64,000 nucleotides of DNA from a virus, in the IMG/VR virus record IMGVR_UViG_3300032307_000797. The stretch is one strand, 5' to 3'. Below are positions 1 to 54,345 of the stretch, in pieces. Position 1 is the stretch's first letter, and each line of letters opens with the position of its first letter. The notes under the pieces are model-generated. The model worked only from the letters and a program-made list of their open reading frames with translations, ran no database searches and was not told the DNA's origin. The position numbers and the translations under genes were made by a program.

Positions 1-1645
1 GTATGTTGTTTATAAATGGGTAACTTGTGCCAAAACCTTCGGGGTCAATAAACCCATGGTCATATAAATCTCTCCATTTCCACAATAACTCGTCCTCAAA
101 GTATTTTGCGTTTTGTGGTAATCCATATACTTGACTTGTATTTGAAGATTCAACATATGGCGATAACTGTCTTAGTTTTACCCTATGATGTGGTTGATAG
201 TATAAACCTACCATATTATCAACAGACGCACCTGAGAAGGTTGCCGAATCATCTTGGTCGTGGTCAAAAATTGTGGTGGGTGATGTTATCTTATGGTACG
301 CTTCACTAACCACTCTTTCCTTTAATTCTGATTTATTATATTCAATAAATGCACCGTTAAGAGTGGTTCCTGTTGTAATGGTTCCTCCCGAAATAAACGT
401 TGTTCCTGACTTTGTGAATGAACCATATGGTACGGTAGTTTCTACTGATGTTGTACCACTAAAATGTTGGTCAATCCATGTGTCATGGAAATTAAATTTA
501 TAACCAACTTTATATGGGTAATCAAAATATCCATTTTTGTTTTTGAATACAACTGAAACATAAACATCTGTTGGTAAGTACCCAAGGTTGTTGGTTAATC
601 CCGTTAATGTAAACGGCTCTTTGAAATCATAAATCAACGATTCCATTCTATTTCTAACCACTAACACATCATTATCACCAACACTATTTTCAAATACCAA
701 TTTTCTTTCGTTTTCCCATATAGATGATTCAAATCCAATCTTATCAAGGATGAACGCATCTCCCATGGTTATCACTTTATGTTTATGAACATAGTATGTT
801 GATATGGTCTCATCTAATCTGTTTCTATTAATACATCTTTTACCAAAAACTACCGTCGATAATGTGGTGCCCGATGGTATTTCAGATTTACTAATTTCTA
901 ACACATAATTTTCAGAATTATATAATTCACTTCCAACCGAAACAACTGAGAATGTTCTACCGGATTGTGGTACCGTGTTATTTAATGTACCACCCGAAAT
1001 CACCACATACTCACCCCTACTAATACCGTGTTCAACAGGACTCGTTAAGAAGTACGATGATTTGTTTTCTGTAACTCTAAACGGTATTCCATCACCCGCA
1101 GTAAAACTATAAACAGTATTACCACTTAACGTGTATTTCATCGGGTGAGACGAGTCACCTGAATAAACATATGATAAACAGATATTCCAATTATGGAATG
1201 GTGCCGTGATTGGGGTTATTTCAATGTGGTCAGTTTGACCCGTAATAACAATATTTTGAGTGAATGCCGATAACACACTTGTTGATGTCGGGTCATTAGT
1301 TTCCCTTACAACATCATCTCTTAAAAACGCAAATTCATTGTATGGTAAAAATCCATCAAATCTATTACCATCATCATACACCAAATATAAATTCTTTTTT
1401 AGTGGTTGGTATCCTGTTGTACCACTATAAAGGTTTCTAAAAACCATTTTAAGTTTTCCATGAATCTTATAATGAGGACTTTCATTTCTTTCTTTAGCAA
1501 AAAGAATTGATGTGTCTAATAGAATAGTTCTATCACCTTCTCTGAGCAAATTTTTAGATTCATCTAAATTTATTTTTAGATTTAAATCTTCATCAATTGC
1601 TCCGAAGAATTTTTTAGATGGTAATATGAGTCTTTTCTTTTCCAT
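1..1645 (-). CDS. Putative virion (baseplate-associated) structural protein, 3'-partial (runs off window start); missing from ORF track
   Basis: ATG at 1645 overlaps the TAA of the upstream gene (TAATG). Frame reads MEKKRLILPSKKFFGAIDEDLNLKINLD... and stays open to position 1. Rich in SGxT/TGxT motifs like neighbouring virion genes. Confidence 0.8.
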   Translation of the reverse strand, partial: MEKKRLILPSKKFFGAIDEDLNLKINLDESKNLLREGDRTILLDTSILFAKERNESPHYKIHGKLKMVFRNLYSGTTGYQPLKKNLYLVYDDGNRFDGFLPYNEFAFLRDDVVRETNDPTSTSVLSAFTQNIVITGQTDHIEITPITAPFHNWNICLSYVYSGDSSHPMKYTLSGNTVYSFTAGDGIPFRVTENKSSYFLTSPVEHGISRGEYVVISGGTLNNTVPQSGRTFSVVSVGSELYNSENYVLEISKSEIPSGTTLSTVVFGKRCINRNRLDETISTYYVHKHKVITMGDAFILDKIGFESSIWENERKLVFENSVGDNDVLVVRNRMESLIYDFKEPFTLTGLTNNLGYLPTDVYVSVVFKNKNGYFDYPYKVGYKFNFHDTWIDQHFSGTTSVETTVPYGSFTKSGTTFISGGTITTGTTLNGAFIEYNKSELKERVVSEAYHKITSPTTIFDHDQDDSATFSGASVDNMVGLYYQPHHRVKLRQLSPYVESSNTSQVYGLPQNAKYFEDELLWKWRDLYDHGFIDPEGFGTSYPFINNI

Positions 1646-52800: not shown

Positions 52801-54345
52801 AACAGTCGCTAAAGTAACTAATGCATATAATGATATATCACCATCCAACGGGAAATCCATTGTGGCATTATATGTTACCACAACAGAACCTGGACTAACT
52901 ACCGCATCAATATTAATTTGATTAACTGTTGGTGTTGCCGTTACTGTAGGTGTCGGAGTTATAGTTGGTGTTGCCGTTGGGGTAATACCAAAACCAATAA
53001 CCGTATCCTCACAATCCTGAACACATTCAATGATATTGTAAGATGGTTTTATTGTTGATAGATAATGGTGTCTTACATGTACAAAATCAAGAGGTTCATC
53101 AAAATATTTGATTCTCTTAAAGTTAAAACATGATACTCCATGGTCATGTATACCACCAGAACCGTTAGTACCTCTACCCCAAGATTGAATAAATGGTTGT
53201 GTTCCTCTTGTTGAGGGAACAACCTCCTCAAAATCTTCAATTTTATATACAGGTCTTCCGTTTAAATAAATTTTTAACGTACCTAATCTTCTATGTCTTT
53301 CATCTGACCATTTTTTCCATAACTCCTCATCAGTACTATAAATTGATGTTTGAGTTGAGGTAACAGAACTTCCCGATTCGGGTGTGTATGGTATGGGTTT
53401 TACCCCTCTAACCATGTCATTCCAACCGCCGTCGTTTTCAATATTACAATCGGTTAATCTTCTATATCTGTCAAATGTAATGGTGATTTCAAAATCCTCA
53501 GAAGTACCGCTAACACACAATGGTGGGGTTTGCCCCGATACCGTATAATAACCTTCGGTATATCCCGAATCACCACAATACCCACTGTAATGAACTGCTT
53601 TCCAAATAATTCTTCTATCGGAAGTAAATGAGAATGATAAATTATTATCCGCGTATTCGGATATTGTTGTAGTACCTCTGGTACCCCAATAATAGAAAGT
53701 TCCACCACTTGACCATGGTAAATCCTCTCTATTGAACACAATATCAATTGTCCAACCCTTTTCAGGTCTTCTATCTACAAAAAATTCACAGTTGTCACTC
53801 CCACCACCATGATTGATTTGATATGCCCATGGTTTTGCATTCTTTATTGGGTCAGTATCACAACATAGATTGGGGTCGGTTAATAATAACTCACATTTGG
53901 TAATGTCACCAGTAAATCCTGTAACATTTAATGAAAATAAATTGGATAATGGTTGATTGTATGTTGAGATTTTAAAATAGTGGGTTAAACCAGAATCATC
54001 AACAAAATCATAAACATCATTATCTAATATTGTGTCAGCATTATTAAGTTGAGTTGTAAAGTCAGAATAACTCAAACTCCAAGTATATCCCGAATAAGGG
54101 TAACTTGGGTCGTTTGAACGATTGTCAATTTCAGTTAGGTAAATCGTACTTTTCGAGCACGATGTATTCATCAATCCCGTGGTATTGATTTTTAATGAGG
54201 AATACGATATAGGAGTATTAAAATCTAAAACTTCTACATTATAGTCAGTTTCAGTCTTCCCTACCTCGTAATCATAAAATTCTGACGTATCGAGCTTTAT
54301 GTCGAGTTTCGTCCCCCAAAATTTGAGTATGTTCTGACTATTCAT
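49810..54345 (-). CDS. Large modular tail fibre/adhesin with LamG (ConA-like) domains, PT linkers and IPNND repeats (1511 aa)
   Basis: Two LamG-like domains (WYYIGFTYDG...YVNG; WVQIVYVF...FDGKIGIVRLYNKSLT) and multiple TPT tracts. Confidence 0.8.
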   Translation of the reverse strand: MNSQNILKFWGTKLDIKLDTSEFYDYEVGKTETDYNVEVLDFNTPISYSSLKINTTGLMNTSCSKSTIYLTEIDNRSNDPSYPYSGYTWSLSYSDFTTQLNNADTILDNDVYDFVDDSGLTHYFKISTYNQPLSNLFSLNVTGFTGDITKCELLLTDPNLCCDTDPIKNAKPWAYQINHGGGSDNCEFFVDRRPEKGWTIDIVFNREDLPWSSGGTFYYWGTRGTTTISEYADNNLSFSFTSDRRIIWKAVHYSGYCGDSGYTEGYYTVSGQTPPLCVSGTSEDFEITITFDRYRRLTDCNIENDGGWNDMVRGVKPIPYTPESGSSVTSTQTSIYSTDEELWKKWSDERHRRLGTLKIYLNGRPVYKIEDFEEVVPSTRGTQPFIQSWGRGTNGSGGIHDHGVSCFNFKRIKYFDEPLDFVHVRHHYLSTIKPSYNIIECVQDCEDTVIGFGITPTATPTITPTPTVTATPTVNQINIDAVVSPGSVVVTYNATMDFPLDGDISLYALVTLATVSGSPITSVMDFIIPSGSTTSKHVDIIDDDYTRLVLDDYNYTSITAVHTGSTPYSISPNLQATYVPIDCFFRFSVSEFYSNCEFEFTATEFFEHPLNDLIYNIIPNNDFEYSLIPNNDLTYTLIPVGDFLYQFIPDNDIAFVSLPNNDLLYSIIPNNDGTYTLIPNNDVSYEILYPTPTPTATPTLTPTLTLTPTLTETPTPTPTETMSILVNQILYYNFDDLSGINGTTVSDTINGIEGTLQNSPSTGSTSCSNYVEFNGVNNLLTTGNINPYLNPSNTSTLISVFSWVYLMGDGVIVSEQGTLPPNTNWYDSQIELVNGTLKFAVWPHSSVITSTIATPLNNWYYIGFTYDGYTLRAYVNGSLAGSSFGVDRQTPYNYLGGAPLYYSIAGECPTSLGNGGYGNFRMGTFEVYDGPLSESTILGNYNSTNSNWDCAELTPTPTSTETLTPTPTSTPTLTSTSSPTLTPTLTETPTATPTSTSTPTPTPTITSCFHPHSATIISAISENQINFSSDVSRACTSAECLTNSTCTIGNFSNVYLNTLTPQVGDLLYNTQTSCSQGGIWGYRVLSLNGTYTVINVDGGQITEIIDCNTILTPTPTSTNTSTPTPTLTNTSTPTPTLTQTVTSTPSSTLTSTPTPTPTLTPTLTSTPTLTSTTPALNFILGYDCVTGGRTIVSGYTGGSGQYDLSSGVHTTENSALNPSSWNQILNPAGVSAGFVGVSGTYWMAVRDRNNTSNKIAKSVVIACSTLTPTPTSTLTPTPTSTPLYSLTTSNLILHYDPSNVSSYSGTGTTINDLSGNGLNGTMSNITYTSPYFSFNGTNSQIAVPDNSLLEPGTGDWTMEVWVNQSIAGNDVVLGKFNSGGLTQNVSYSIRTTSSTYYAQLGSGSGSGSTLYVNSTNHAGTPNTWVQIVYVFTNNASNTLETFVNGVSIGSVSHSLSQILNSTSSLYIGSYNNGEYSQWFDGKIGIVRLYNKSLTSTEVLNNYNVDKSKYGL
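52297..52520 (-). repeat. 10-aa coding tandem repeat (I/L)PxND-x2-Y, about 7-8 copies
   Basis: IIPNNDFEYS LIPNNDLTYT LIPVGDFLYQ FIPDNDIAFV SLPNNDLLYS IIPNNDGTYT LIPNNDVSYE. Confidence 0.85.

Follow-up and report, generated by a model that had tools for sequence, protein, structure and literature searches.

A lineage-specific hydrophobic-[S/T]-G-x-T motif in the outer virion proteins of uncultured freshwater jumbo phages, and its possible role as a glycosylation tag

We analysed a stretch of 64 kb (hereafter "the window") of the virus record IMGVR_UViG_3300032307_000797, which has a G+C content of 35% and is part of the genome of an uncultured freshwater T4-like jumbo myovirus, and found that its outward-facing tail, baseplate and fibre proteins carry the motif hydrophobic-[ST]-G-x-T at four to six times the frequency expected by chance. 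The motif is lineage-specific, patchy within one jumbo-phage clade and restricted to outer virion proteins; the positions of its sites turn over, and their number per protein is maintained. The original prediction, made from the letters of the window without database searches, had taken a pervasive [ST]-G-x-[TS] to be a phage-specific modification signal served by three glycosyltransferases and a methyltransferase encoded nearby; of this, a real, protein-level and lineage-specific signal in outward-facing virion proteins has stood, and the link to those four enzymes has not. We tentatively suggest, at somewhat less than even chance, that the motif is a surface tag kept by a trans-acting reader, most plausibly a phage-encoded O-glycosyltransferase, and we rate this explanation and a purely structural one as close.

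Enrichment is given throughout as the observed count against that in composition-matched shuffles of each open reading frame (ORF). In the eight large outer virion proteins of the window, [ST]GxT occurs 68 times where 16.6 would be expected (p 3e-21, z 13) and SGxT 43 times where 7.3 would be expected, Ser outnumbering Thr at position 0. Gly alone is enriched at +1, with [ST]AxT, [ST]NxT and [ST]DxT at or under expectation. At +3, in a table made from the window only, Thr stands at 4.1 times expectation, Ser at 1.1, Val at 0.6, Ile at 1.2 and Tyr at 0.75, and Phe is likewise not enriched. Position -1 is hydrophobic at 66% of the sites against a background of 34%, +4 is often hydrophobic too, S, T, N and G are common at x, and the surroundings of the sites are poor in charged residues. 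The motif as first proposed therefore had to be narrowed, since its Thr at +3 is borne out (68 vs. 17) and its Ser at +3 is not, [ST]GxS showing no enrichment in the same eight proteins (15 vs. 13.3).

The excess remains when residues are shuffled only inside windows of 10 to 80 residues (68 vs. 16–19, the 10-residue windows giving 18.9), the codons at motif sites are mixed, and the +1 and +2 reading frames show no motif, so that the motif is selected at the protein level, and a motif acting at the DNA level is ruled out by the same mixed codons and empty alternative frames. Of the 8000 possible a-b-x-c patterns, scanned without preselection, SGxT is in third place (Bonferroni p 1e-15), with only patterns of Pro/Thr linkers above it, which makes it the top pattern not of low complexity. 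An artefact of chance or composition, in which S/T/G-rich proteins would simply yield many matches, is refuted for the window and has a negligible probability: the enriched proteins are indeed rich in these residues, and collagen-like G-A-T/G-A-Q runs do inflate [ST]GxT in two proteins of the relative G003 (introduced below), but global and 10-residue local shuffles give z values of 11–13, other orders of the same residues stay flat (0.9–1.6 times expectation), the window proteins have no G-x-y runs, and the enrichment in the relatives G001 and G003 survives masking of such runs. The sites are not significantly clustered (11 close pairs vs. 7.0, p 0.07). As had been pointed out, the motif differs from the Bacteroidota O-glycosylation sequon D-[ST]-[AILVMT], which is not enriched in the eight proteins (29 vs. 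40.8 expected), nor is N-x-[ST] (132 vs. 128.5); DGY, considered as an alternative tag for motif-free relatives, is not in excess in a single one of 150 sheath homologues (39 vs. 41). A search of the literature found no paper describing hydrophobic-[ST]-G-x-T.

The tetrapeptides that had been listed for the sheath, the 704-aa protein, the 1927-aa protein then called hub, and the ORF at the left edge of the window are all present. [ST]Gx[ST] exceeds expectation in six ORFs, ranging from 13 vs. 1.3 expected (z 10.6) in the left-edge ORF, where enrichment is strongest, to 8 vs. 3.6 in the 1927-aa giant, and including the 1280-aa protein (13 vs. 3.0), the sheath (11 vs. 2.8), the 704-aa protein (11 vs. 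3.1) and the 1511-aa fibre-like protein (15 vs. 7.7). Sites in the giant proteins are limited to sub-regions, in the 1280-aa protein to aa 612-750 and 1052-1200. The expected scarcity in enzymes was also confirmed, the replication and nucleotide enzymes having 0–2 [ST]Gx[ST] each. Eight other virion proteins, among them the wedge, gp25-like, hub, tube, gp13-like adaptor, 613-aa and 417-aa proteins, have no [ST]GxT at all (1.7 expected), and the remaining 26 ORFs of the window have 8 (3.7 expected). The left-edge protein, whose full-length form of 580 aa is P0271 (p580; its window part is p548), has no Pfam or PHROG match and contains a tandem hexapeptide expansion, SGTTFI-SGGTIT-TGTTLN.

The tail sheath, which has both sheath domains and the adjoining tube gene of a T4-type contractile sheath, carries 10 [ST]GxT where 1.4 are expected (SGDT121, TGST137, SGVT146, SGNT165, SGST234, SGQT270, TGAT304, SGTT510, TGTT588 and SGNT650). 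All ten lie in the inserted domains (aa 105-653) and none in the core (aa 1-104 and 654-948; P 0.004), and the inserted region of T4-type sheaths forms outer domains. In 80 relatives of this sheath there are 774 motifs against 122 expected. At least ten motif-bearing proteins have no detectable mutual homology by blastp, and when the sheath and p580 families are aligned by hhalign the probability is 0.09. One proliferated domain common to the motif proteins was considered and rejected, for blastp finds only an 87-aa domain shared by the 1511-aa and 683-aa proteins, and hhalign lends the idea no support.

AlphaFold2 models were made of the sheath and of p580; their mean predicted local distance difference test score (pLDDT) is a poor 45, with one usable confident domain in each. 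Within aa 105-370 of the sheath, sites 234, 270 and 304 lie in two- to five-residue turns between strands, sites 137, 146 and 165 in loops, and site 121 in a strand; within aa 155-295 of p580, sites 162, 174 and 217 are tight turns in which the Thr at +3 opens the next strand, site 228 follows a helical turn, and site 258 lies in a loop. About six of the 12 sites in regions of pLDDT >70 are thus tight turns between strands, in models that are poor overall. The placement in loops and hairpin tips, together with the outer position of the inserted sheath domains, suggests that the sites are exposed; many of them are at the same time tight beta-turns, an outcome that the original prediction had listed as counting against it and that fits both a modification and a structural reading. 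A fold search with the p580 model gave no match.

How the sites evolve was followed in an alignment of 76 sheaths that are 73–99% identical. Each protein has 7–14 sites distributed over 22 alignment columns, only three of which are near-universal, and columns exchange the whole motif without any indel (SGIT/TGLT vs. DDLP/NDLL, SG[KIV]T vs. SDKI, TGNT vs. TADV/TTDS). The p580 family shows the same positional turnover, with 5–13 sites per protein over 28 columns. Since unrelated sequences occupy the same columns within the clade, the fold does not require the motif. Where [ST]G is kept and the Thr at +3 is replaced, Ser is the commonest substitute (19 of 36 patterns; Val 5), and the hydroxyl is therefore retained.

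The nearest cultured phages are distant, namely Microcystis phage Mel-JY01, with a sheath 32% identical, and Flavobacterium phage immuto. Hundreds of close relatives exist in public metagenomes, on contigs of up to 333 kb. One of 310,691 bp (G001, 93% complete) is collinear with the entire window at about 80% protein identity; a complete one of 321 kb (G003) is more distant, its sheath being 43% identical. The host phylum is probably Bacteroidota, a view that fits with a C-terminal sorting domain of the type IX secretion system (T9SS) on a protein in relatives; this domain points to a phage protein that would be exported by the host secretion system. The lineage may be that of the recently described "moraphages", which have four core glycosyltransferase groups whose target is not known (PMC12619734).

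Enrichment extends to these relatives, and again only to some of their proteins. In G001 four fibre or baseplate proteins have 14 vs. 1.2, 9 vs. 1.1, 5 vs. 0.3 and 11 vs. 0.5 expected, the sheath 11 vs. 1.5, the orthologue of the 704-aa protein (702 aa) 12 vs. 1.9, that of the 1927-aa giant 9 vs. 1.5, and the major capsid protein 4 vs. 0.55. No such excess is seen in an array of Laminin_G_3 paralogues of G001 that are just as rich in S, T and G (20 vs. 15.7). This array, at 147-165 kb (L097, L098), comprises a dozen or more adjacent paralogues, six of which were scanned and carry Laminin_G_3 (concanavalin A (ConA)-like lectin) domains; it may be a store of receptor-binding proteins that can replace one another. 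G003 has the same restricted enrichment, also after masking of collagen-like G-x-y runs; two adjacent proteins of 809 and 874 aa in this genome (270103-275156, L212) consist for about 585 aa each of collagen-like G-A-Q/G-A-T triplets, which inflate [ST]GxT unless masked.

Outside this group, T4 structural genes have 9 (9.0 expected), and Mel-JY01 has 4 vs. 6.2 in its tail module, 0 in its homologous sheath, and 19 vs. 16.8 in the whole genome; LR756508 (5 vs. 2.4), NCTB (15 vs. 8.5) and immuto (32 vs. 19.4, just 1.65-fold) complete the comparison, and a generic property of myovirus tails is thereby rejected. Sheath representatives clustered at 50% identity, 150 in all, split into many with 5–15 sites, where about 1–3 are expected, and about twenty with none. 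A tree of the conserved C-terminal sheath domain places the enriched sheaths within one large jumbo-phage clade, interspersed with motif-free ones, and the clade that holds Mel-JY01 and immuto is near expectation. Only two motif-free relatives offer a substantial amount of sequence. A contig with the sheath P0141 (ENA contig k141_62159; L086/L195) encodes a sheath 40% identical to that of the window with 0 sites, and its putative structural ORFs, polymerase and helicase excluded, have 2 sites where about 1.6 are expected; the genome G008 (70% complete), with 20 vs. 13.7 genome-wide, was classed as motif-free, and no other tri- or tetrapeptide is enriched in it. Both have 25% G+C, against 35% in the motif-rich genomes, and structural proteins much poorer in S, T and G. 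When further motif-free genomes were sought, the scanned collections contained no relatives of P0175, of P0184 or of the P0141-type glycosyltransferase, and P0152 lies on a contig of 8.8 kb.

The three glycosyltransferases and the Methyltransf_24 enzyme named in the original prediction are real, with evidence of differing strength (see the table). The 407-aa enzyme belongs to a virus-specific family, is 26% identical to phi92 gp164, and occurs also in phi92-like coliphages and in a 735-kb megaphage. For the 355-aa enzyme the sole solved relative, a distant one, is AmGGT (PDB 8xsg), among the AmGGT/Agt-type glucosyltransferases; AmGGT in turn is homologous to the Agt enzymes of Actinobacillus, which lengthen the glucose chain of glycopeptides produced in the cytoplasm (PMC12159676). 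The 259-aa GT2 enzyme, whose start overlaps the stop of the 355-aa gene, has a conserved DxD-like LE[VF]DDE block, also in the P0141 contig, and no homologue in 50,697 phage records. The Methyltransf_24 gene and that of the 683-aa Thr-rich protein form a cassette (44263-47349) that is absent from G001, an indel that joins an enzyme with its possible substrate. Eleven mucin-like Pro/Thr linkers of the type TPTPTLTSTPTLT, 21–70 aa each, lie between domains of the 683-aa (45712-47103) and 1511-aa (50476-52986) proteins, and the tripeptide TPT occurs 74 times in the eight large proteins against 6.7 expected; such linkers are classic O-glycosylation substrates elsewhere.

In the reading that we tentatively prefer, hydrophobic-[S/T]-G-x-T would be a short tag on exposed turns of the sheath decoration domains, the baseplate periphery and the fibres, read by a trans-acting factor produced during infection. 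The reader would be a cytoplasmic, phage-encoded O-glycosyltransferase acting on folded proteins, the Ser/Thr hydroxyls flanking the Gly would be modified, and the glycan would lie on the particle surface jointly with the Pro/Thr linkers of the fibres. A reader is suggested because turn physics is universal, yet the motif has become fixed in certain lineages while the homologous folds of other lineages lack it; because unrelated outer proteins share it, with sites that turn over at a maintained number; because Thr is demanded over other beta-branched residues, when beta-propensity alone would favour V, I, Y and F too; and because compositionally similar proteins of the same genome lack it. Lineage-specificity with positional turnover is what would be expected of a sequon read by a trans-acting enzyme, and we liken the proposed tag sites to the glycan-shield sequons of enveloped animal viruses, in which sites are gained and lost. 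O-glycosylation becomes the candidate modification because sugar genes are numerous and the same fibres contain mucin-like linkers. That the motif is read at all, that the mark would be a sugar and which enzyme would attach it are inferences; as to the enzyme, the three glycosyltransferases and the methyltransferase of the window are no more than candidates, with nothing in the data that favours them over others. The part of the tag explanation that we assign to glycosylation is smaller and, taken by itself, doubtful, as is the full proposal that the motif is a previously undescribed O-glycosylation sequon on beta-hairpin tips with which a freshwater Bacteroidota jumbo-phage clade glycan-coats its tail, baseplate, fibres and probably capsid, which we think improbable rather than probable.

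Several observations weigh against this reading or against its enzymes, and the co-occurrence of motif and glycosyltransferases in related phages, which the original prediction called for, failed. Six genomes or contigs were compared, two of them incomplete. The 407-, 355- and 259-aa glycosyltransferases are all present in the motif-rich window, G001 and G003, and all absent from the motif-free Mel-JY01. The motif-free P0141 contig has all three, syntenic and intact, in the order found in the window (glycosyltransferase, dUTPase, PhoH, small gene, glycosyltransferase, GT2) and 27–32% identical to its enzymes (E 5e-39 to 5e-61, the latter for the 355-aa enzyme); the motif-free G008 retains the 407-aa enzyme, and its 355- and 259-aa counterparts were not found in this 70%-complete genome. 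The glycosyltransferase cluster, a module that is conserved across a wider family of phages, is hence not sufficient for the motif, nor is the methyltransferase necessary, being missing from the motif-rich, collinear G001. Because both motif-free relatives have a low G+C content, the presence or absence of the motif cannot be told apart from differences of lineage, composition and possibly host. Further sugar genes of G001 and G003 (additional GT2s, a UDP-galactopyranose mutase beside a GT2, and a carbamoyltransferase) could not be tied to the motif, and no further glycosyltransferase interleaved with the G001 fibre genes was found. The mutase was tried as a predictor and rejected: it is present in G001, G002 and G003 and not in G008 or Mel-JY01, but phiM9, which carries it, shows no enrichment (25 vs. 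16.4). In G001 the mutase beside the GT2, the carbamoyltransferase of NodU/CmcH type and a 635-aa protein with the T9SS domain lie at L095:12386-14576, L096:15033-16703 and L105:500-2407; they are also in G003 and absent from the motif-free genomes. On the structural side, a Gly with a polar residue after it is a classic way of making a tight turn from one strand into the next, and roughly half of the 12 or so sites in well-predicted model regions form hairpin turns whose Thr starts the following strand; structure by itself could therefore be reason enough.

That structural reason, a favoured turn sequence for hairpins and strand starts in fast-evolving, beta-rich decoration domains, with no reader and no attachment, deserves to be taken seriously, though it too stands clearly below an even chance. 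It would account for an obligatory Gly in the turn, Ser as its cap, and Thr opening the next strand, for x being so often S, T, N or G, for the hydrophobic -1 and often +4 as at strand ends, and for the short inter-strand turns (pLDDT >70) that hold the three sheath and three p580 sites named above. Sheath sites 304, 588 and 650 and p580 site 174 are invariant among the 73–99% identical homologues, the hexapeptide expansion of p548 suggests spread by local duplication, so that the motif would possibly have spread by descent from short duplicated hairpin units, and the glycosyltransferase cluster persists where the motif is missing. What it leaves unexplained is why the motif is missing from the homologous folds of T4, Mel-JY01 and G008 and from many sheath homologues, why other sequences occupy the same columns within the clade, why +3 shows no excess of V, I, Y or F, why the ConA-like beta-sandwich paralogues of the same genome, equally rich in S, T and G, are not enriched, and why the motif proteins have no detectable homology and mixed codons. 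A reader of another kind, whether a phage or host enzyme that phosphorylates, acylates, ADP-ribosylates or the like, or a non-covalent docking partner such as a decoration or cement protein or a host surface polysaccharide, would share the lineage-specificity, residue specificity and turnover with the tag reading; the failure of the three glycosyltransferases to co-vary with the motif leaves room for it, as do 79 genes common to the motif-rich G001 and G003 and absent from motif-free genomes, mostly without assigned function, two of which are conserved small genes adjoining the motif-richest fibre protein. We consider it unlikely, since the window has no recognisable kinase, acyltransferase or ADP-ribosyltransferase and a docking motif on more than ten different proteins would be unusual. 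A further proposal concerns the enzymes alone and can be combined with every reading of the motif: the three glycosyltransferases may serve DNA hypermodification or host-envelope glycans, and not the virion, their nearness to motif-rich genes being coincidental. This falls only just short of an even chance, for dUTPase/dCTP-deaminase-like and PhoH genes lie between those of the cluster, and among nucleotide-pool genes DNA or the host envelope are equally possible substrates; the cluster is syntenic in a motif-free relative, thymidylate-synthase-family enzymes occur in relatives, and the literature on "moraphages" cites DNA glucosylation as the usual role of such enzymes (PMC12619734). Against it, no hydroxymethylase was recognised in the window, and the solved relative of the 355-aa enzyme falls in a family whose members extend glucose chains on glycopeptides (PMC12159676).

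Some phages glycosylate virion proteins with their own glycosyltransferases; to our knowledge this has so far been shown in mycobacteriophages only, and we know of no sequon for it. In Che8, Corndog and Myrna, virions are reported to be glycosylated by phage-encoded glycosyltransferases (Freeman et al. 2023, as summarised in PMC12619734), and the likeness to the tag reading lies in a tailed phage with its own cytoplasmic glycosyltransferases, in virion structural proteins as the proposed substrate, and in a coat thought there to shield the particle. In the mycobacteriophages the glycans sit on the C-terminal ends of capsid and tail-tube subunits and the hosts are Actinobacteria, whereas the candidate sites in the window are internal turns of sheath decoration, baseplate and fibre proteins, its tube has 0 motifs, and its host is probably a member of the Bacteroidota; the summary describes no defined four-residue motif, and glycosylation is demonstrated there and proposed for the window. 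A second comparison is with the N-glycosyltransferase (NGT) and Agt of Actinobacillus and Haemophilus, soluble cytoplasmic enzymes with a short sequon and a second glycosyltransferase that extends the sugar (PMC12159676). Their sequon, N-x-S/T, is the one found above not to be enriched in the window proteins, and no NGT (GT41-like) gene was recognised in the window; AmGGT itself uses oligosaccharide, not glycopeptide, acceptors (PMC12159676), and the 355-aa enzyme is distant from it. The Bacteroidota system resembles the proposal in the probable host phylum and in a three-position Ser/Thr sequon. General O-glycosylation at D-[ST]-[AILVMT] takes place outside the cytoplasm, on exported proteins. 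Autotransporter heptosyltransferases and the O-fucosyl- and O-glucosyltransferases of epidermal growth factor (EGF) and thrombospondin (TSR) repeats recognise folded strand-turn-strand elements, with the acceptor Ser/Thr on a tight turn of beta-structure by Gly or small residues; their consensus and enzyme families differ from ours, and we know of none from phages. Two-residue beta-hairpin turns with Gly at the first loop position share with the motif the obligatory Gly, the polar x, the flanking strands and the hydrophobic -1, but they are universal, and leave the restriction to a lineage and to outer proteins, and the strict Thr at +3, unexplained.

The minus strand of the window (1-54345) holds the tail, baseplate and fibre genes and replication genes, and from 54400 onward genes lie on the plus strand. 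Among the latter, a 315-aa protein (55641-56588, plus strand) with 14% Gly consists of about six tandem repeats of about 47 aa (NPNALS.GDEKGKGEN...GGLTDI..R..L..KN.Y); it has no family match, its G001 orthologue has 220 aa and fewer repeats, and the repeat is matched by a 105-aa protein of the P0141 contig. Two minus-strand genes, 28625-30466 and 38916-40118, are only 41% and 44% identical to their G001 counterparts, with flanking genes at 67–99%, and vary from 33 to 100% identity among relatives; neither has the motif, and they may be host-range or counter-defence determinants. In G001, a thymidylate-synthase-family gene (102906-103946, L198) matches Pfam in two pieces around an insertion within one 430-aa frame, which may be an intein or an inserted domain.

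Table. Features of the window in map order, with their positions, strands and numbers of [ST]GxT sites where given.
Feature	Position	Strand	Assignment and context	[ST]GxT
p580, N-terminal part, 548 aa	2-1645	-	baseplate/fibre region; C-terminal ~32 aa beyond left window edge	11
1280-aa virion protein	1645-5487	-	baseplate/fibre region; adjoins gp6-like wedge gene	9
gp6-like baseplate wedge, 610 aa	5546-7378	-	inner/tightly packed	0
gp25-like protein	7380-7832	-	inner/tightly packed	
Replication block: ribonucleotide reductase, DnaB-like helicase, exonuclease, UvsX-like recombinase, single-stranded DNA-binding protein		-		
1927-aa baseplate/hub-region giant	17701-23484	-	second tail block; sites at aa 979-1137 and 1819	7
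gp53-like gene		-	second tail block	
1594-aa virion protein	23797-28581	-	second tail block; modest enrichment, 2.2x over 36 relatives	6
613-aa protein		-	second tail block	
Hub	30611-31360	-	second tail block; inner/tightly packed	
Tube	31459-31947	-	second tail block; inner/tightly packed	0
Tail sheath, 948 aa	32242-35088	-	Pfam Phage_sheath_1 and Phage_sheath_1C, phrog_23; adjoins tube gene	10
417-aa fibre-like gene		-	second tail block	
Helicase		-		
gp13-like adaptor	40170-41288	-	inner/tightly packed	
DNA polymerase		-		
Methyltransf_24 methyltransferase, 204 aa	44263-44877	-	E 1e-17; weak likeness to rhamnosyl O-methyltransferases	
683-aa protein, large, Thr-rich (21% T)	45298-47349	-	five (T-P-T-L/S)n mucin-like linkers; motif not enriched	3
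704-aa virion protein, large, Thr-rich	47628-49742	-		10
1511-aa fibre-like protein, large, Thr-rich	49810-54345	-	two C-terminal Laminin_G_3 (ConA-like lectin) domains, six Pro/Thr linkers	12
Five genes without assigned function	from 54400	+		
GT-B-fold glycosyltransferase, 407 aa	58066-59289	+	phrog_7162 E 4.5e-44; Pfam Glyco_transf_4 under cut-off	
dUTPase, PhoH, 225-aa gene		+		
Putative GT-B glycosyltransferase, 355 aa	61993-63060	+	PDB 8xsg glucosyltransferase E 6e-8; Pfam GT1 weak	
GT-A (GT2) glycosyltransferase, 259 aa	63057-63836	+	Pfam Glycos_transf_2 E 8.7e-7, above cut-off	

For the biology of these very abundant uncultured freshwater jumbo phages, the finding means that the outside of the virion carries a four-residue motif with strict requirements at its positions. 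If the motif is structural only, it would be an unusual repeated fixation of one turn sequence in unrelated proteins of a single lineage, needing an explanation of its own. If an enzyme reads it, it would be a new protein-modification code, from which virion surfaces could be predicted from sequence alone, and it would offer a way into the question of how large phages shield or camouflage their tails, and possibly a tool for the site-directed glycosylation of folded proteins.

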